In this document: positions 46,907-62,468 of the stretch, in pieces | How the letters are laid out: each line of letters starts with the position of its first letter | How positions within the stretch are numbered: position 1 is the first letter of the stretch | Sequence record: SRR31156797_10354 | DNA length: 64,000 nt | Direction: 5' to 3' (one strand) | The notes under the pieces: model-generated | Told to the model about the DNA's origin: nothing | What the model saw: the letters and a program-made list of their open reading frames with translations, nothing else | Databases searched by the model: none | Program-made: the position numbers and the translations under genes

Positions 46907-50199
<3,293 letters not shown>

Positions 50200-50294
50200 A
50201 CATTCCACCCCTAAATAAATTTCAAAGAAAATCTATGTTGTATGTGCTTACCGGTATAACATACTGTTCTTTCTGCCAGCAATGTACCATTTAT

Positions 50295-53927: not shown

Positions 53928-53977
53928 AAAAAAAAAGAAACCTTGCAGTATGTTTTCTGCAAGGCTTCCTTCTTTTC
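53928..53977 (-). terminator. Terminator after the dxs-like gene
   Basis: CCTTGCAG...CTGCAAGG plus long A-run. Confidence 0.75.
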
Positions 53978-54006: not shown

Positions 54007-55773
54007 TTAGTGAATTGATTGCTGTAACTGTTCCATAACGTCTTTCGTAATTGTCTCAACGGTGATACCAAGTTCAGATAAAACGTCCGCTGCCCGGTAA
54101 TTATCATAAAATTTCTTTTCTAAGCCATAATTTTTGACGACAATCTCACGATCACCCAGGTAGCTGGCAATCATTTGTCCATAGCCACCCTCTCGTATGC
54201 CATCTTCCAACGTGACAACGAGTTTGTGCGATCGTGCCACAGCATCCAACAACTCTTTGTCGACCCCTGAAATAAACTTAGGATTGATCACCGTTGGCGT
54301 AATTCCATGTTGCATTTTCAATTGTTCTGCGATCTCTTCCGCTAACGCATAAAAGTTCCCAACACCGACGATGGCTACCTGCGTGCCAGCTTGAGTCACT
54401 TCATTTTTTTGATCACTGTAGTCAGTAGAGACTGTCACTGCCATTTCGTTGACAGGTCCAACCGGTACCCGGATCGCAACTGGTGCGTTGGTTTGTTCCA
54501 GCGACCAATCCAACATTGCCAGATATTCTTCTTTAGAGGTTGGCGCAAGATAAATAAGGTTGGGAATATGTGCCAAAAATGGAATATCAAAAATTCCCAA
54601 ATGGCTCTCGTCATTCATGCCGTGAATCGATGCACCATATACCAGAATCGTTCCAGGCAGATGATTTAAGGCCAAATCATGGGAAATTTGATCAAAACTA
54701 CGTTGCATAAAGGTAGAAAAAACGGCCCAGACAGGTTTTGCTCCATTTTTTGCTAACCCAGCAACCATCGATACCGCATGTTCTTCTGCAATACCTACAT
54801 CTACAAATTGTTTGCCTGCTTTTTCTCTTTGTTCCGGAGAAAAAAGCAGCATCGGTGTACCAGCGTTTACTGCCACGACTTTAGGATCTGACGCCATTTT
54901 TTCTAATAAATAATCCGTCGTTAAGCTATTGTACGTTACTTGATTGCCGCCAGTAGAAATATATTCGCCGGTTTCTAAATGAAAGGGACCGCCTGCATGA
55001 AACTTTTCACGATTTTCTTCCGCAAACTTGAAGCCTTTGCCTTTGATCGTATGAATGTGTAATAAAACAGGATGATCAACATCTTTCACTTTTTCAAATA
55101 AAGCAATCAATGCAGCGAGGTCATTTCCTTCATCCAAATAGTGGTACTCAAAACCAATCGCTTTGAACAGATTGTCTGCTGCTTGCCCATTGGTTTCCCG
55201 CAATGCCCGCAAATTCTGATACATCCCCCCATGGTTTTCTGCGATCGATTGGTCATTGTCGTTGAGGACCACGATGGTATTGGTGCCTAATTCCACGATA
55301 TTGTTCAAGCCTTCAAACGCTAACCCGCCTGATAGAGAACCATCACCAATCACGGCAACGACGTTATACGTTTCATTTTTTAGGTCACGGGCTTTCGCCA
55401 CACCATTTGCCAGCGAAACTGACGTGGAGGTATGTCCGACCGTAAAGAGATCGTGCTCGCTTTCTTTCGGATTCGTGTAACCAGAAACCGCACCATACTG
55501 CGCAGCATCAAGAAAGGCATGGGCGCGTCCTGTCAGCATTTTATGGATATAAGTCTGATGAGACACATCAAAAATCAGCTTATCTGTGGGGGAATCAAAG
55601 ACTCTATGCAACGCAATCGTCATCTCAACCATCCCCAGATTGGGGCCATTGTGCCCCCCATGGTGACTGATTTTTTCCAATAAAGCAGTTCGTGCTTCTA
55701 CTACCAGTTCTTGAAGTTGCCCACTGGTCAATTCTTTTAACGCTTTGGGGCTTTTGATTTTTTCTAATAACAT
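54007..55773 (-). CDS. dxs: 1-deoxy-D-xylulose-5-phosphate synthase-like ThDP enzyme (divergent paralogue)
   Basis: GGHNGPNLG, DVSHQTYIHK, GHTSTS, GDGSLSGG..LNDN, DVGIAEEH; start after AGGAGG. Confidence 0.85.
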   Translation of the reverse strand: MLLEKIKSPKALKELTSGQLQELVVEARTALLEKISHHGGHNGPNLGMVEMTIALHRVFDSPTDKLIFDVSHQTYIHKMLTGRAHAFLDAAQYGAVSGYTNPKESEHDLFTVGHTSTSVSLANGVAKARDLKNETYNVVAVIGDGSLSGGLAFEGLNNIVELGTNTIVVLNDNDQSIAENHGGMYQNLRALRETNGQAADNLFKAIGFEYHYLDEGNDLAALIALFEKVKDVDHPVLLHIHTIKGKGFKFAEENREKFHAGGPFHLETGEYISTGGNQVTYNSLTTDYLLEKMASDPKVVAVNAGTPMLLFSPEQREKAGKQFVDVGIAEEHAVSMVAGLAKNGAKPVWAVFSTFMQRSFDQISHDLALNHLPGTILVYGASIHGMNDESHLGIFDIPFLAHIPNLIYLAPTSKEEYLAMLDWSLEQTNAPVAIRVPVGPVNEMAVTVSTDYSDQKNEVTQAGTQVAIVGVGNFYALAEEIAEQLKMQHGITPTVINPKFISGVDKELLDAVARSHKLVVTLEDGIREGGYGQMIASYLGDREIVVKNYGLEKKFYDNYRAADVLSELGITVETITKDVMEQLQQSIH

Positions 55774-55998
55774 GTACGTACCTCCTGTAGAAATGTTTGA
55801 ATGGTTCGTGTGTTTACTCACAAGGAAAAAGACACGAAATCGAAATGAGTGGATCGTTCTCTAGAATGAAAAACGTGGCCATCAGAGCTAGACGCTCTTT
55901 TTAGAATTCCTGTCAAACCAAGAAATAGCAAGTTATCCTAAAGGGAAATCGTGATTTTTCTGAGTTTTAACAATCGCTGCTCATTTCTTCTATCTAAA

Positions 55999-56029
55999 AA
56001 GATACCACCTAGAGTTGACTTTAGGTCAA
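55999..56029 (-). promoter_or_regulatory. MerR-type promoter with dyad operator upstream of the dxs-like gene
   Basis: TTGACC-19 bp-TATCTT; dyad ACCTAAAGT-CA-ACTCTAGGT at 56007-56026. Confidence 0.75.
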
Positions 56030-56090
56030 GCACTTTTTGTGAATTTATTCTATTTTGATCCTATCTTTACTGCGTGCCCGCCATAATGAT

Positions 56091-56123
56091 ACAAAAAAAG
56101 ATAAGAAGCGCTTGCTTCTTATC
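56091..56123 (-). terminator. Terminator after the zeta remnant and small ORF
   Basis: AGATAAGAAGC-gctt-GCTTCTTATCT plus A-run. Confidence 0.8.
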
Positions 56124-56181
56124 TCGGGTTTTACTTGTTCAATGGTCATTCTTAAGAAACCTAAATTTTTTCATTGACCAC

Positions 56182-56349
56182 TTATTCTTCTTTCTCTAAG
56201 CCAACAAGCACTCGCTGTTTACGGTTCGATTCTTCTGCAACAAAGTTTAAAACTGTTTTCAATTCGCTAGGCGTTGCCTTTTTCTGTAAGATCGAGAAGT
56301 TTCGATGATATTTTATCATGATTGTTTCTACTTTTTCTTTCTCAGTCAT
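56182..56349 (-). CDS. 55-aa hypothetical protein coupled to the zeta-family ORF (below the ORF track cut-off)
   Basis: MTEKEKVETIMIKYHRNFSILQKKATPSELKTVLNFVAEESNRKQRVLVGLEKEE; GGAGGAG RBS; overlaps the upstream stop. Confidence 0.7.
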   Translation of the reverse strand: MTEKEKVETIMIKYHRNFSILQKKATPSELKTVLNFVAEESNRKQRVLVGLEKEE

Positions 56350-56704
56350 TGAGCTTCTCCTCCAATTCTTCCTTTGTGTATGTTAATGGCAAAGCGAACG
56401 ATACATTGTCAACTGCCATCAACGTATGAGAATGGCGATTCTGAAAATCTTTTATAAAAATATTAACGGTCACATTTTCTTTATACAATTCCTTCATTTT
56501 AATCAAGTTATATCTTGATTGAAAAAAAGCATTTATAAAATGTTCTTTAGGAACAAAGCGTCCTTCTATTTTTTCACGTTGCTTCGTATAATTCCAAGCA
56601 ATAAAAGGATCTTGATAGATATAATAGATAAGCACATCATAATTCTTTTTTAAGCATCGCGCAATATTTTGATCAGCTTTTTTAGTGGGTGAAACAAGAA
56701 TCAT
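56342..56704 (-). pseudogene. 5'-truncated zeta-toxin-family P-loop kinase (C-terminal half only)
   Basis: QNIARCLKKNY..YIYQDPFIAWNYTKQREKIEGRFVP lid region present; no Walker A; no RBS. Confidence 0.7.
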
Positions 56705-56806: not shown

Positions 56807-57814
56807 TTAGTGTTTGTCCCACTGTTTTCCGAAAGATTGTTGTTGTGATTCGACATGTCCTCGATGGCCATATACAGGTATTTGATTCAATTGGTTTTCA
56901 ATTACTTGAAATTCGGTATCTGTAAGCTGTACATCCCAAGCAGCTAGATTTTCCAAAATCCTGCCTCGATTTTTTGATCCAGGAATCGGCACTGCATTCG
57001 GATACTTGTGAAGCATCCACGCCAATGAAATTTGGGCATTTGTCGACTGCTTTGCTTGAGCGACTTCTGCTAGCATATTTAAAATCGGTTGATTGGCTAC
57101 GAGGTTTTCTTTAGCCAGCTGAGGGACGAATTTGCGAACATCATCCCCTTCAAAGGATGTATCTGGTGTGACTTTTCCAGATAAAAACCCACTAGCGATT
57201 GGTGAAAAAGGAACGACGGCGATCTCGTTCTCAAGACAATAGGGGAAAATCTCTCGCTCACAATCACGCTCAACCATTGAATAGAGATTTTGCACAGCAC
57301 CAACGGGGGTAATCCCATGTGCTTTAGCAAGTGTCTCCACGGAAACTTGTGAGAGTCCCCATTCTCTGATCATACCTTCTTTGATCAATCGTCCCATCAC
57401 CTCAGCTATTTCTTCTAAAGAAAGCTGTTCATTGATTCGATGAAGATAATAGAGATCAACATAATCGGTGCGCAATTTTTCCATTGAAGCAATCAAATGG
57501 TTACGGATGGCTGTGTAAAGAGTTGTGCTTTCATTCACTTCTTTTTCGTCGAGATGATACTTGGTGGCAAGAACAACTTTGTTTCGAAAAGGCGACAGTG
57601 CTTTACCCACCAACTCCTCATTATGTCCAGAATAAAACATTTCTTTTCCATAAGCTTCTGCTGTATCAAAAAATGTACAGCCAAATTCGTAAGCTTTGCG
57701 AATAGATGCAATACTCTCTTTTTCTTCTGGCACCTTTCCATATCCGTGAGAAAACCCCATACACCCCATTCCGATTGGCGAAACTGCTAAACTTCTGATT
57801 TTTCTATTCTTCAT
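56807..57814 (-). CDS. Aldo/keto reductase
   Basis: IGMGCMG, FDTAEAY, LATK, DLYYLHR, VPFSPIASGFL, VPIPGS. Confidence 0.93.
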   Translation of the reverse strand: MKNRKIRSLAVSPIGMGCMGFSHGYGKVPEEKESIASIRKAYEFGCTFFDTAEAYGKEMFYSGHNEELVGKALSPFRNKVVLATKYHLDEKEVNESTTLYTAIRNHLIASMEKLRTDYVDLYYLHRINEQLSLEEIAEVMGRLIKEGMIREWGLSQVSVETLAKAHGITPVGAVQNLYSMVERDCEREIFPYCLENEIAVVPFSPIASGFLSGKVTPDTSFEGDDVRKFVPQLAKENLVANQPILNMLAEVAQAKQSTNAQISLAWMLHKYPNAVPIPGSKNRGRILENLAAWDVQLTDTEFQVIENQLNQIPVYGHRGHVESQQQSFGKQWDKH

Positions 57815-57865: not shown

Positions 57866-57896
57866 ACTTTAGCATCTTCGAGTCACTCGAAGTCAA
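57866..57896 (-). promoter_or_regulatory. MerR-type promoter and operator of the aldo/keto reductase gene
   Basis: TTGACT-19 bp-TAAAGT; perfect dyad CTTCGAGT-G-ACTCGAAG at 57876-57892. Confidence 0.85.
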
Positions 57897-58067: not shown

Positions 58068-58514
58068 ATGAAAGGCGTGACCAACATTTACTCTATCAAA
58101 GAAGCAGCCACGATCACTGAATTGTCTGAACACACGATTCGCTATTATACCGATATGGGTTTGGTTCCTAGTTTGATCAGGGACAAAAACAACAGACGGG
58201 TTTTTAATCAGACTTCCATCAATTGGTTAACTGGTATCAAGAATTTGCGCGAAACAGGCATGTCTTTAGAAGCCATTAAGCATTATATTTCGCTTTGCCT
58301 CCTTGGCGATTCGACGATCAAAGAAAGAGCCGACATCATTCAATCGCAAAAAGAAAAAGCGCTCGTTAAACTTACAGAAGCGCAAAAACGAGTCGCTTAT
58401 TTAGAAAAGAAAAGCAATACCTATCAAGAGCTCATCAACCAGAAAACAGCTTCTAACGATCCATTGAATCCGGCAACTTGGGAGGAGGAAGCAGTATTGC
58501 GGAATAGAACTTGA
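58068..58514 (+). CDS. MerR family regulator (AdhR/YyaN-like); start codon uncertain
   Basis: YSIKEAA..LSEHTIRYYTDMGL, RDKNNRRVF, LRETGMSL, LCLLGDSTIKER. Confidence 0.88.
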   Translation: MKGVTNIYSIKEAATITELSEHTIRYYTDMGLVPSLIRDKNNRRVFNQTSINWLTGIKNLRETGMSLEAIKHYISLCLLGDSTIKERADIIQSQKEKALVKLTEAQKRVAYLEKKSNTYQELINQKTASNDPLNPATWEEEAVLRNRT

Positions 58515-58654: not shown

Positions 58655-59728
58655 TTATTTCCGATACATCTTCAATTCCAAGAACAAATCATTATAGATG
58701 CCAAGATACTCAGCACCTAAGTTTTCATAGACTTCGAGGTGTTCCATCAATTCATCGGATGGGTAGAATTGTTCGTCTTCGGTGATCTCGTCTGGCAGTA
58801 AGGCCATGGCTTCTTGGTTAGGTGTGGAATAGCCGATGTATTCTGCGTTTTGTGCAGCGTTCTCGGGTTCTAGCATAAAGTTCAAGAAGGCGTAAGCACC
58901 GGCTTCGTTTTGTGAGGTCTTAGGAATGACCATATTATCGAACCACAGGTTGGAACCTTCCGAAGGGATCACGTAATGAATGTGCTCGTTTTCGTACATC
59001 ATGTCGGCTGCTTCCCCAGAAAATGTGACCGCAACCGATGCTTCTTCATTGGCCATGTACATCTTGATTTCATCTGCGACGATGGCTTTGATATTTGGGG
59101 TCATGGTCCGCAGCTTATTGAATGCCTCTTGCAGTTGATCATCGTCTTTGCTGTTAAGAGAATAGCCTAAGCTGTCCAAACCTAATCCCATTACTTCACG
59201 CGCGCCATCGATCAGCATGATGCTGTTTGCTAATTCGGGTTTCCAAAGATCGTCCCATTGGGTGATCTCACCTTCATCAAAGAATTTATCGTTATAGACG
59301 ATCCCCAGTGTTCCCCAGAAATAAGGGATGGAATATTGATTGCCTGGATCAAAACTCAGGTCTAAAAAGCGAGGGTCGATATTGTCTAGCCCTTTGATTT
59401 TGCTGTGATTCAATGGTTTTAAAAGATTTTGTTCCATCATTTTCTCAATCATGTATTCACTCGGTATGGCGATGTCATAGGACGTACCGCCTTGTTGGAT
59501 CTTCGTGAACATCGCTTCATTTGAGTCAAAGGTTTCATAATTGACTTTGTAGCCTGTCTCTTCTTCAAACTTACTGATCAAATCAGGGTCGATGTAGTCG
59601 CCCCAGTTGTAGATGTTGACGACCTCAGCGCCTGCCATACCAGAGGAGCGTTCCAATTGACGGACACCAAAGAGCAAGATCAGGACGATCGCAACAATAC
59701 CGATAATCAGAGATTGTAGTCGTTTCAT
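58655..59728 (-). CDS. potD: Spermidine/putrescine ABC substrate-binding protein
   Basis: YNWGDYIDP, FDSNEAM, PYFWGTLG, EGSNLWFD. Confidence 0.95.
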   Translation of the reverse strand: MKRLQSLIIGIVAIVLILLFGVRQLERSSGMAGAEVVNIYNWGDYIDPDLISKFEEETGYKVNYETFDSNEAMFTKIQQGGTSYDIAIPSEYMIEKMMEQNLLKPLNHSKIKGLDNIDPRFLDLSFDPGNQYSIPYFWGTLGIVYNDKFFDEGEITQWDDLWKPELANSIMLIDGAREVMGLGLDSLGYSLNSKDDDQLQEAFNKLRTMTPNIKAIVADEIKMYMANEEASVAVTFSGEAADMMYENEHIHYVIPSEGSNLWFDNMVIPKTSQNEAGAYAFLNFMLEPENAAQNAEYIGYSTPNQEAMALLPDEITEDEQFYPSDELMEHLEVYENLGAEYLGIYNDLFLELKMYRK

Positions 59729-60561
59729 CGCAGATTTGCCACCTCCACACGGCGGTTTTTACGCAACTTTTTCGCGCCGTTTTCTTTACTGATAAAGTAA
59801 TAGCCTACCACCAGGATCATGGAGAATAAGAAGACAAGTGTGCTTAATGCATTGATTTCTAAACTGATTCCTTGACGTGCTCTAGAATAGATCTCTACCG
59901 ATAAGGTACTAAAGCCATTGCCTGTCACAAAGAATGTCACGGCAAAATCATCGAGTGAATAAGTAAAGGCCATGAAATAGCCGGCGATGATGCCCGGCGT
60001 CAAGAAAGGCAAAATGATATTTTTAACGACTTGAAAATTATTCGCGCCTAAATCACGGGCAGCATCGATCATTGAATCGTTCATCTCTTGCAGTTTCGGC
60101 AAGACCATCAAGACCACGATCGGGATACTAAAAGCGATATGCGAAAGCAACACGCTGAAAAAGCCTAAGCTAAACCCACGGAACAAGTTGCCGATCATCG
60201 TGAAGAAAATCAAGAAGCTAGCACCAATGATGACATCTGGTGAAACCAACAAAATATTATTCAAACTCAACAATGCTGTTCTTGTTCGGCGTTTGCGGGT
60301 ATAGTAGATGCCCATCGCACCAAATGTGCCGATGATCGTTGCCAGTAATGCTGATAAAAATGCCAGCATAAAGGTGTTCAACACGATGATCATCAAGCGG
60401 GTATCTTGAAAGACGGATTGGTAATGTTCAAAAGTGAAACCCGTAAAAGCATTCATGGTGCCTCCTTCATTGAAGGAATAGAAAATCAAATAAAAGATCG
60501 GCACGTACAAAAGAATAAAGACGACGATCAGATAAAGATTCGACCAGCGAAATTTTTTCAT
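59725..60561 (-). CDS. potC: Spermidine/putrescine ABC permease
   Basis: SPDVIIG, DAARDLGA, FTYSLDDF. Confidence 0.95.
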   Translation of the reverse strand: MKKFRWSNLYLIVVFILLYVPIFYLIFYSFNEGGTMNAFTGFTFEHYQSVFQDTRLMIIVLNTFMLAFLSALLATIIGTFGAMGIYYTRKRRTRTALLSLNNILLVSPDVIIGASFLIFFTMIGNLFRGFSLGFFSVLLSHIAFSIPIVVLMVLPKLQEMNDSMIDAARDLGANNFQVVKNIILPFLTPGIIAGYFMAFTYSLDDFAVTFFVTGNGFSTLSVEIYSRARQGISLEINALSTLVFLFSMILVVGYYFISKENGAKKLRKNRRVEVANLR

Positions 60562-61367
60562 TTACGTTGCCCTCCTTTTTTCTTTTCTCCCGTAAACAGC
60601 ATCACGAGGAACATAGCGATGATCAAAATGACGCCGATGGTCGAACCCATGCCCCAGTTTTGGGTAACGAGAAAGTGCTGCTCGATCGCCGTACCAAGCG
60701 TGATTACGCGATTGCCCCCAATCAAACGGGTCAACATGAAGAGGGAGAGCGACGGAATGAAGACGGCTTGGACGCCGCTTTTTACACCGTTTAACGACAG
60801 AGGGAAAATCACTCGTCGAAACGTATCATAGCTGTTTGCCCCTAAATCGCGACTGGCACTGATCAAAGAGGGATTCATTTCTTCTAAGGCATTAAAAATC
60901 GGCATGATCATAAAGGGCAGTTCGATATAGACGGCAACCGTCAAAAAGCTAAAGTCGGTAAACAAAATCTGCTTTGGTCCAACACCCATGATTTCTAGAA
61001 AATTGTTGACACTACCGTGAATGCCGAAGATGCCAATAAACGCGTAGGCTTTTAACAATAAGTTGACCCACGTTGGTAAGATAATCAACAGCAGCCACAA
61101 ATCTTTGTGACGCAGCTTAGTTAAGAAATAGGCTGTCGGGTAGCTGATCACTAAGGTAATCAAGGTGATCAAAAAGGCATACCAAACCGAGTTTAAGGTC
61201 ATGATCAAATATTTGCCAGAACCTAAGTAGCTTTGATAATTGACCAGCGAAAAGTTGCCGTTCATATCAAAAAAGGATTGGTAGATGATCAATAAGACTG
61301 GTGCAATAACAAATAGCAATAACCAAAAGACATAGGGTATCGCATAAAAACGACGCATTTTCGTCAT
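60558..61367 (-). CDS. potB: Spermidine/putrescine ABC permease
   Basis: LPTWVNLLLKAYA, ASRDLGA, VFIPSLS. Confidence 0.95.
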   Translation of the reverse strand: MTKMRRFYAIPYVFWLLLFVIAPVLLIIYQSFFDMNGNFSLVNYQSYLGSGKYLIMTLNSVWYAFLITLITLVISYPTAYFLTKLRHKDLWLLLIILPTWVNLLLKAYAFIGIFGIHGSVNNFLEIMGVGPKQILFTDFSFLTVAVYIELPFMIMPIFNALEEMNPSLISASRDLGANSYDTFRRVIFPLSLNGVKSGVQAVFIPSLSLFMLTRLIGGNRVITLGTAIEQHFLVTQNWGMGSTIGVILIIAMFLVMLFTGEKKKGGQRK

Positions 61368-61379
61368 TAGCTTTCCCTC

Positions 61380-62468
61380 CTAATCTTCGTAGCTCTCTAA
61401 ACGAGCATCAAAATCTTCTTCGGACTCATTGAAACGCATGACGTGGATGTCTTCTGGTTCAAAGGAAAGCCCGATCTTGCTTCCTTCAGTGGCTTTTCTT
61501 GTAGAGTGAACCATCCACTCGTTGCCTTGTTCGTCGTAACAAATGATTTCGTAATGCACGCCTCGGAACAATTGAGTATCCACTTCAACGACTAACTTGC
61601 CTTTCTCAACGGTCGTCAAATTCAAATCTTCCGGACGGATCACGATCTCAACGGCTTCATTCGGACGCATCCCGCCATCGACACATTCAAACTGCTTGCC
61701 GACAAACTCCACTAAGTTGTCTTCGATCATCGTACCTGTAACGATGTTGCTTTCACCAACAAAATCCGCTACAAAATGGTTGATTGGTTCATCGTAGATA
61801 TCCACTGGCGTGCCACTTTGGACGATCTTCCCTTTGTTCATAACGAAAATCTCATCACTCATCGCCAACGCTTCTTCTTGGTCATGGGTGACAAAAATAA
61901 AGGTGATGCCTAGTCGCTGCTGCAATTCCCGCAGCTCGTATTGCATGTCAGTTCGCAATTTCAAGTCCAATGCGGACAATGGTTCATCAAGAAGCAATAC
62001 TTTGGGTTCATTGACGATCGCTCGTGCGATTGCGACCCGTTGGCGTTGACCTCCTGACATTTCGCTGATTTCACGATTCTCATAACCAGGAAGTTGTACT
62101 AACCGTAACGCTTCTAAGACTTTTTTATTCACTTCATCTTTTGGTAATTTTTTGATTCGCAGACCAAATGCCACATTTTCAAAAACGTTCATATGTGGGA
62201 ATAAGGCATAATCTTGAAAGACAGTATTCACTTGCCGTTGATTGGCAGGAACGTCATTAATTCTTTGTCCATCAAAATAAACGTCGCCTTCTGTTGCGTC
62301 CGAAAAACCCGCAATGATGCGTAAAATAGTTGTTTTTCCACAACCTGAAGGACCTAACAATGTATAAAAGCGACCTTCTTCAATATCAAAACTCACTTTT
62401 TTCAAAACTGTTTCATCATCATCAAATCGTTTCACCACATTGTTGAATGAAATTATTGTTTTTCCCAC
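61380..62468 (-). CDS. potA: Spermidine/putrescine ABC ATPase
   Basis: [39 protein letters not shown]. Confidence 0.95.

Follow-up and report, generated by a model that had tools for sequence, protein, structure and literature searches.

A DXPS-like thiamine diphosphate enzyme without the canonical acceptor site, preceded by a predicted MerR-type promoter

What does a gene named 1-deoxy-D-xylulose 5-phosphate (DXP) synthase (DXS or DXPS) do in a lineage whose nearest sequenced genome yielded none of the DXP-pathway genes that we sought? This question is raised by a gene at positions 54007..55773, on the minus strand, of a 64,000-nucleotide stretch of DNA from sequence record SRR31156797_10354, which we refer to as the window. 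The gene is predicted to encode a catalytically competent, thiamine diphosphate (ThDP)-dependent enzyme of a DXPS-like clade. The protein is very probably not an enzyme of the methylerythritol phosphate (MEP) pathway. We interpret it overall as a ThDP carboligase that would be induced by electrophile stress and act on non-phosphorylated carbonyl compounds, a reading to which we assign a probability of about 0.5. The gene itself has the following features.

54007..55773, minus strand: coding sequence of the DXPS-like ThDP-dependent enzyme, 588 amino acids (ATG at 55773..55771, stop codon at 54009..54007; from the open reading frame and its translation)
55781..55786, minus strand: Shine-Dalgarno sequence AGGAGG, 7 nt before the ATG (read from the sequence)

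Acceptor pocket, clade and DXP consumers

The open reading frame is intact and unbroken across 588 amino acids. A longer alternative frame, with a GTG start and reaching 55821, lacks a ribosome-binding site. The protein contains the Pfam domains DXP_synthase_N, Transket_pyr and Transketolase_C. Its top NCBIfam match is NF008968 (the PRK12315 'DXS' subfamily) at 838.4 bits against a cut-off of 510, spanning residues 1-583 and profile positions 2-581 of 582, which is full-length membership of that subfamily. The match to the TIGR00204 'dxs' equivalog model (EC 2.2.1.7) falls into two stretches because a loop is deleted. Relatives at 95-99% identity, from Enterococcus casseliflavus or E. innesii, carry the name DXS. 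The AlphaFold2 (AF2) model of the protein has a pLDDT of 90.1 and shares the three-domain fold of canonical DXPS structures (E. coli 2O1S; D. radiodurans 2O1X and 6OUV; M. tuberculosis 7A9G), with TM-scores of 0.83-0.90.

We aligned the protein by BLASTP to E. coli K-12 DXS (b0420), taken from NC_000913, which gave 33% identity (198/606) with an E value of 4e-104. A first-pass annotation of this DNA had reported intact ThDP and catalytic motifs combined with altered acceptor motifs, and the alignment bears this out in each particular. Canonical DXPS and the query share the GDG..NDN ThDP motif (D144 and N173 in the query) and the residues E330, H41, H72, H259, R358 and H391, which correspond to E. 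coli (Ec) E370, H49, H80, H299, R398 and H431. In contrast, DRAG reads YGAS, with D419-R420 aligned to Y379-G380; RYPRG reads RVPVG, with R478 aligned to V438; and IYSTF reads VFSTF, with Y392 aligned to F352 (AIYSTF versus AVFSTF). The segment between Ec183 and Ec250 has 35 residues in place of 67. Two further changes had been overlooked. R99 is replaced by A91, and D427-G428 is replaced by N387-D388, which shifts the aspartate by one position.

These positions are well characterized in canonical enzymes. EcR420, R478 and Y392 have been termed 'the conserved GAP binding pocket', the E. coli R478A variant has a Km for D-glyceraldehyde 3-phosphate (D-GAP) of 1400 µM, and a role of R99 in DXPS has been demonstrated (available text of PMC11019550). 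The crystal structure of MtDXPS contains phosphate-like density that touches the equivalents of Y392, R420, H431 and R478 (available text of PMC9068908). An H431-D427-R99-H49-H299 network is described as retaining lactyl-ThDP (LThDP) until D-GAP arrives (available text of bioRxiv 10.1101/2025.10.24.684457). Since the substitutions found in the alignment hit the positions named in the latter two sources, the query deviates at three of the four phosphate ligands and at two of the five residues of the gating network. The site that holds the D-GAP phosphate in canonical enzymes is now uncharged and partly aromatic (A91, F352, Y379-G380 and V438), and the N387-D388 pair is predicted to alter the LThDP-gating network described for E. 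coli DXPS.

To place the substitutions in a family context, we used 67 full-length proteins from related loci together with the query (n=68, 50-97% identity). All 68 members, which come from several phyla, are identical at nine cofactor and catalytic positions. Arg420 is found in none of the 68, and neither is a basic residue at position 478, whereas the canonical sequences aligned alongside have R420 in 46/46 and R or K at 478 in 46/46; the residue pattern is therefore not a chance one. Tyr392 is kept in 9 of the 68 members. Position Ec419 is F or Y in 62/68, and the position of G428 is occupied by Asp in 67/68.

A phylogenetic tree was calculated with FastTree from 124 sequences, consisting of 122 full-length representatives (from the best 150 of a search of a 50%-identity library), the query and E. 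coli DXS. The D419-R420 pair is present in 87/124 sequences, and those listed also have Y392, D427-G428 and H431, with R or K at 478 in nearly all. Thirty sequences including the query form one clade with a support of 0.999 and no canonical sequence inside it. All 30 have a loop of 33-35 residues and none has D419-R420; another seven sequences without the pair were placed elsewhere in the tree. Members of the clade differ considerably from one another at Ec392, 419/420, 427/428 and 478, as expected of diversified acceptor pockets.

The closest entry in the Protein Data Bank (PDB), both by sequence and by fold, is 9KPQ, released 2025-08-20 under the title 'A ThDP-dependent enzyme belonging to the DXPS-like subfamily'. 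It matches the query over its full length at 705.4 bits (E 4.4e-211), compared to at most 354 bits for any canonical DXPS. It superimposes on the AF2 model with a TM-score of 0.94, an rmsd of 2.1 and 54% identity, while canonical structures reach at most 0.90. Like the query, 9KPQ has 588 amino acids, a short loop and a GMND..H motif, and in the alignment neither the arginine of DRAG nor the second one of RxPRG is present. The pockets differ in having F-W in 9KPQ versus Y-G in the query at Ec419/420, and A versus V at Ec478. Our literature search for 9KPQ and for bacterial DXS-like enzymes returned only papers on plant DXS-like proteins, canonical DXPS and AniP; a paper in a subscription journal is possible.

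AniP provides a second point of comparison. siAniP, the only characterised DXPS-clade relative in the available literature, is a ThDP enzyme of full length that lacks the substrate residues of transketolase and DXPS, and it accepts D-glyceraldehyde but not glyceraldehyde 3-phosphate (available text of PMC11387542). It resembles the query, by description only, in its DXPS-clade membership and in the loss of substrate-recognition residues.

Taken together, the protein is not a recently decayed copy but a member of an old DXPS-like clade that is well separated. The first-pass annotation had called it a paralogue that lost the D-GAP-binding residues. Its residue argument is sound, but it describes a trait of the family and not a local event; a paralogue with a loss in this lineage is not supported, given the clade support of 0.999 and the nearest genome to the window (G001), which has no canonical DXS. 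This genome is 100% complete and has 64% of sampled words in common with the window. Its single DXS-type gene is the orthologue of the DXPS-like gene. The search for dxr/isp and thiG that had been suggested as a check was run on G001: dxr, ispH, ThiG and PdxJ were sought in the complete genome and none was found. HMG-CoA synthase is present (536.7 bits). Thus the query gene differs from canonical dxs genes in its setting as well, with no MEP, thiazole or PdxJ context in G001 and with a stress-type MerR promoter, described below.

To get a broader picture, we sampled 301 Lactobacillales genomes, of which 43 have an NF008968 match over the cut-off. We took as carriers the 32 with a listed match of at least 806 bits and left out the next listed scores, which are at most 527 bits. 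dxr is absent from 28 of the 32 carriers and present in 4. In two of the 32, the gene has an in-frame stop (G092:C1:374221-375955 and G238:C42:6907-8649; TAA and TAG, respectively), and these copies are possibly pseudogenes. Among 10 further carriers reached via named loci, dxr is present in 6 and absent from E. cecorum, Gemella haemolysans, E. gallinarum and a 1.8-Mb Segatella metagenome-assembled genome (MAG). Five dxr-positive carriers were examined for other DXS-type genes, and four of them also hold a separate canonical DXS (568-796 bits).

One Enterococcaceae genome, G182, has dxr and ispH and, as its only DXS-type gene, a family member with 73% identity to the query, the same pocket and the same MerR box. 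We considered this enzyme as a supplier of DXP and rejected it on the basis of its genus (g5), in which 9/9 other genomes have dxr but lack the gene. dxr (459-477 bits) is found in all ten sampled genomes of the genus (G046, G174, G182, G190, G206, G220, G279, G284, G292 and G308), and no canonical DXS was seen in any of them. The nine others have no DXS-type match at all (best NF008968 E values of 1.6e-20 to 4.1e-35). Since 9/10 genomes have dxr without the DXPS-like gene, the presence of dxr in this genus is independent of it.

The promoter and its partner genes

The sequences that flank the coding region contain the following elements.

55999..56029, minus strand: predicted MerR-type promoter, with -35 TTGACC (56029..56024), a 19-nt spacer and -10 TATCTT (56004..55999)
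56026..56007, minus strand: dyad ACCTAAAGT-CA-ACTCTAGGT overlapping the -35 of the DXPS-like gene (read from the sequence)
55774..55992, minus strand: putative 5' untranslated leader of about 219 nt (start inferred; from the distance between the -10 and the ATG)
53928..53965, minus strand: intrinsic terminator right after the stop codon, stem GCCTTGCAG / CTGCAAGG followed by a T-run (from the sequence)
56090..56125, minus strand: terminator of the preceding gene, a zeta-toxin-domain fragment, with a 12-pair stem and a T-run (terminator scan)

The 19-nt spacer combined with the dyad is a MerR-family signature. A -35 embedded in an inverted repeat is described as particular to NmlR-type operators (available text of PMC5001606), and as the -35 of the DXPS-like gene lies in such a repeat, its promoter is classed from sequence as an NmlR/AdhR-type MerR promoter. 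The gene is monocistronic because terminators bracket it on both sides, and the upstream one stands between the zeta-toxin-domain fragment and the promoter. The terminator scan also lists the 53928..53965 hairpin on the opposite strand. The length of the leader is not conserved, with 54-81 nt in other genera. We looked for a riboswitch or other leader RNA with an Rfam scan (E<=1), but all matches were weak and to unrelated families, and this candidate was dropped.

Contigs from four ant metatranscriptome runs cover the whole gene at 95-99% likeness, and one contig spans the entire stretch. In three runs, contigs break between 55963 and 56084, and one run contains a 2114-nt contig at 53972..56084. 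We drew nothing about transcript ends from these breaks, as such contigs show no starts, ends, strand or level and may derive from DNA.

Next to the promoter structure itself, its recurrence points to regulation. We searched for the box form TTGACyTrrAGT-NN-ACTyyArG in 73 related loci (1.09 Mb), allowing at most two substitutions and using the reversed pattern as a control. The box occurs 24 times, compared to 0 for the control. It is present in 17 of the 73 loci, and in each of these a copy lies on the strand of the orthologue, no more than 1.4 kb upstream of it. The orthologue is then the first gene, or it comes second behind a MerR, aldo-keto reductase, cupin or RibD_C gene. The operator precedes orthologues in at least 10 lineages of Bacillota; the box-bearing lineages comprise the E. 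casseliflavus group, E. columbae, three Candidatus or unnamed enterococci, Listeria fleischmannii, Roseburia, Eubacterium/Clostridiales and Erysipelotrichaceae. A similar promoter, again with a spacer of 19 nt but with its dyad (TAAAG-N4-CTTTA) displaced by one base, is found at two loci assigned to Bacteroidota, both of which have a divergent MerR gene. In the 64-kb window, the pattern has a single match, at the promoter of the DXPS-like gene. It is thus likely, as far as sequence can tell, that the gene is under MerR-type control.

The nearest genome indicates what else such a regulon may contain. With at most one mismatch, G001 has four box sites, compared to 0 for the control, and these precede the orthologue, a MerR-aldo-keto reductase operon, an aldo-keto reductase-MerR operon and a flavodoxin_4 gene. 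G182 shows a matching arrangement. Across the loci, the recurrent neighbours are MerR genes (adjoining the orthologue in 8 loci, in two phyla), aldo-keto reductases (5), NADPH-FMN reductases (5), flavodoxin_4 (4), short-chain dehydrogenases/reductases (SDR), ABM and esterase genes. Clustering of the neighbours in the 73 loci gave no universal operon partner. The major facilitator superfamily (MFS) transporter and RpiR genes downstream of the DXPS-like gene were likewise rejected as partners, being conserved only in the E. casseliflavus group and separated from the gene by a terminator.

Three further loci are of note. In an Enterococcus sp. MAG (L029 4295..12290), six MerR boxes lie within 8 kb in what looks like a compact regulon island, where they precede two MerR genes and MFS, DUF4440, RibD_C-like plus DXPS-like, NAD(P)H-binding, SDR, aldo-keto reductase and Zn-dependent alcohol dehydrogenase genes. 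In Gemella and Streptococcus sp. (L032-L042), an orthologue with 64% identity lacks the MerR box; it is flanked by a divergent DegV gene on one side and, on the other, by the genes of a PRD/EIIA regulator and GutM, a sorbitol-type regulator pair, so that its control differs in this lineage. Finally, E. coli yajO (L007 1162..2136), which adjoins dxs, encodes the aldo-keto reductase YajO, whose RefSeq name is '1-deoxyxylulose-5-phosphate synthase'; this neighbourhood of aldo-keto reductase and DXS-type genes is reminiscent of the co-regulation at the DXPS-like gene.

The MerR regulators have the NmlR model as their best match, at 86-92 bits against a cut-off of 175. NmlR and AdhR are thiol-based sensors of formaldehyde and methylglyoxal (available text of PMC4776306 and PMC5001606). 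The sensor cysteine (HiNmlR Cys54 / AdhR Cys52) is present in six aligned MerR proteins encoded beside the orthologue in other taxa. Known NmlR/AdhR regulons (H. influenzae nmlR-adhC-estD; B. subtilis adhR with adhA, yraA and yraC) resemble the present one in the 19-nt spacer, in the repeat over the -35 and in having carbonyl-detoxifying oxidoreductases as targets. They differ in that no class-III alcohol dehydrogenase or esterase D gene is found at the four G001 box sites, where the targets are instead aldo-keto reductases, a flavodoxin-like protein and the DXPS-like enzyme, and in that the conserved sensor cysteine is missing from the MerR proteins of the E. casseliflavus group. In the literature that we searched, no ThDP enzyme is listed in an NmlR/AdhR-type regulon, and neither a function for the DXPS-like family nor its membership in such a regulon was found.

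Possible functions of the enzyme

How could such an enzyme serve a stress response? A MerR-family activator would switch the gene on under reactive-carbonyl or electrophile stress. Using ThDP, the enzyme would decarboxylate a 2-keto acid, for which pyruvate is the simplest candidate, and the acyl anion would then attack a non-phosphorylated aldehyde or a different carbonyl electrophile. This would yield an alpha-hydroxyketone (acyloin) of lower reactivity, which the co-regulated reductases could reduce further. A non-phosphorylated acceptor had been proposed in the first-pass annotation, and it fits because the pocket is uncharged and the regulon includes aldo-keto reductases. The same annotation judged the protein to be 'probably not a DXP synthase'. 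This is supported, an MEP enzyme being very unlikely given the replacement of three of the four phosphate ligands, the lack of consumers in G001 and the 28 of 32 carriers without dxr. The specific chemistry of pyruvate plus an aldehyde is offered more tentatively, at somewhat less than even odds.

Several observations weigh against the proposed carboligase function. Every source names the protein DXS, and the TIGR00204 cut-off is passed, although only marginally (494.1 vs 465.95 bits). With regard to compensating basic residues in the acceptor pocket, which the first-pass annotation had raised as a counter-argument, five basic residues conserved specifically in the family (K34, H38, R316, H516 and K553) could in principle rebuild an anion site. 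The natural donor of siAniP is not pyruvate but 4-hydroxyphenylpyruvate, an aromatic 2-keto acid (available text of PMC11387542). On the regulatory side, the box pattern was derived from six positive sites, so that the independent part of the result consists of the other 11 loci and the sites in G182 and G001. No box was found in 56 of the 73 loci, including those of E. cecorum, E. gallinarum, Gemella/Streptococcus and most Bacteroidales. Both box-linked MerR proteins of G001 have another residue in place of the sensor cysteine (H and Q), as does the MerR protein encoded in the window (N); as these regulators lack the cysteine described as 'absolutely conserved' in the NmlR clade, the signal may differ from that of NmlR and AdhR. 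The chief argument for a DXP-related role in some part of the family comes from Olsenella urininfantis (G005), which has dxr (375.7 bits) and ispH (262.2 bits) and whose sole DXS-type gene is a family member.

The Olsenella gene, the family-specific basic residues, the database names and the TIGR00204 score would all be accounted for if the protein did make DXP, or made 1-deoxy-D-xylulose that is phosphorylated in a later step, while binding its acceptor differently and feeding an unrecognised DXP-requiring process. The Olsenella member (L071 8001..9752) has 52% identity to the query and a housekeeping context of FTHFS, FolD, GTP cyclohydrolase I, FolC-like and ThrRS genes. However, its pocket is even more acidic, with E, G-D, S-D and G at Ec392, 419/420, 427/428 and 478, and across the family neither Arg420 nor a basic residue at 478 occurs in any of the 68 members. 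Most carriers, G001 among them, lack dxr, four of the five MEP-positive carriers keep a canonical DXS as well, and in genus g5 dxr is found in 10/10 genomes and the gene in only 1/10. We consider a DXP-forming role very unlikely for these reasons. An inactive DXS relic, left behind after the lineage moved to the mevalonate pathway, would explain an orphan gene in a mevalonate-pathway genome and the in-frame stops in two carriers (G092 and G238). It is extremely improbable for a protein whose nine cofactor and catalytic positions are invariant in 68/68 members across several phyla, whose gene has an intact frame, a good ribosome-binding site, a promoter and a terminator, and whose clade is old and distinct, with one member crystallised as an enzyme (9KPQ).

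The two remaining alternatives concern the chemistry rather than the presence of an active enzyme. Like AniP, the protein could be a biosynthetic carboligase that takes a larger aromatic or branched 2-keto acid as the donor and makes a specialised metabolite rather than detoxifying aldehydes. siAniP sets a precedent within the DXPS clade, and the gain of an aromatic residue (F/Y at Ec419 in 62/68), the small residues at 420 and 478 and the highly variable pockets of the short-loop clade would suit diversified substrates. AniP acts in anisomycin biosynthesis, and its homologues are reported from Streptomyces, Chromobacterium and Pseudomonas, in every case adjacent to aminotransferase and SDR genes (available text of PMC11387542). 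In contrast, the query gene stands alone behind its MerR promoter, in gut, oral and insect-associated bacteria; the AniQ-type aminotransferase and AniN-type SDR pair of AniP-like benzylpyrrolidine carboligases is absent from the window locus, and no aminotransferase was seen among the recurrent neighbour clusters of the 73 loci, the only clusters that were annotated. With no biosynthetic partner conserved in these loci, and with a stress-type MerR promoter common to reductases, which is unlike a biosynthetic cluster, an AniP-type role appears quite unlikely.

Alternatively, the enzyme could belong to the same stress regulon but perform a different reaction, in which alpha-dicarbonyls such as diacetyl or methylglyoxal are donors that are cleaved or rearranged, nitroso compounds are acylated, or electrons of the enamine pass to quinones or O2 together with the flavodoxin-like and FMN-reductase proteins. 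Canonical DXPS accepts nitroso compounds and O2. It has also been described with alternative activities (available text of bioRxiv 10.1101/2025.03.03.641193). The recurrence of Flavodoxin_4, NADPH-FMN reductase and ABM genes as adjacent or co-regulated neighbours points in this direction, as does the alteration of the LThDP-gating network at two positions (N387 and A91), by which release of the intermediate may be ungated. The commonest co-regulated partners are nevertheless aldo-keto reductases, which are equally or better suited to products that are aldehydes or ketones, and we regard this alternative as unlikely.

The family had already been recognised structurally (9KPQ), and the new element is the link to an NmlR/AdhR-type regulon. 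Because the acceptor site is gone and most carriers lack dxr, pathway reconstructions that count this family as the first step of the MEP pathway are wrong. The connection of a ThDP carboligase with an NmlR/AdhR-type electrophile regulon is a directly testable detoxification hypothesis, and ThDP-carboligase detoxification is not among the formaldehyde and methylglyoxal responses covered in the available text of the review PMC4776306. In its widest form, the proposal would be a thiamine-dependent branch of carbonyl-stress defence in gut, mouth and insect bacteria, in which an NmlR-type MerR regulator controls a carboligase that quenches aldehydes with a pyruvate-derived acyl anion and aldo-keto reductases that reduce the acyloins. 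This generalisation is doubtful at present; if true, thousands of 'DXP synthase' entries in mevalonate-pathway bacteria would be mis-annotated detoxification enzymes. DXPS is an antibacterial drug target, and the family displays the DXPS scaffold once the GAP pocket is gone. The highly variable pockets of the short-loop clade also make it a possible source of new acyloin-forming enzymes for biocatalysis.

Neighbouring genes in the window

The neighbours of the DXPS-like gene in the window are the MFS transporter gene, the zeta-domain fragment and an aldo-keto reductase gene, the last of which lies in a separate unit next to a regulator gene.

56807..57814, minus strand: aldo-keto reductase, separate unit (Pfam Aldo_ket_red, 232.5 bits)
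57866..57896, minus strand: second, different predicted MerR-type promoter, of the aldo-keto reductase gene, with -35 TTGACT, a 19-nt spacer and -10 TAAAGT
58068..58514, plus strand: MerR-family regulator, divergent from the aldo-keto reductase gene (Pfam MerR_1; NmlR model 86.3 bits against a cut-off of 175)

The best NCBIfam matches of the reductase are to methylglyoxal or GAP reductase types, below their cut-offs. Its promoter contains a perfect dyad, CTTCGAGT-G-ACTCGAAG, unlike the box of the DXPS-like gene. The MerR protein encoded at 58068..58514 probably regulates this reductase box. We did not assign it as the regulator of the DXPS-like gene, as the box adjacent to it is a different palindrome.

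The preceding 120-amino-acid open reading frame at 56342..56704 (minus strand) matches only positions 110-186 of the 199 in the Zeta_toxin profile (44.2 bits); it resembles a truncated zeta-type kinase gene and ends at the terminator 56125..56090. The flanks indicate an ordinary chromosomal context, with beta-glucoside phosphotransferase system (PTS) IIABC and 6-phospho-beta-glucosidase genes at 46907..50208 (minus strand) and a potD-type spermidine/putrescine ABC transporter operon at 58655..62468 (minus strand).

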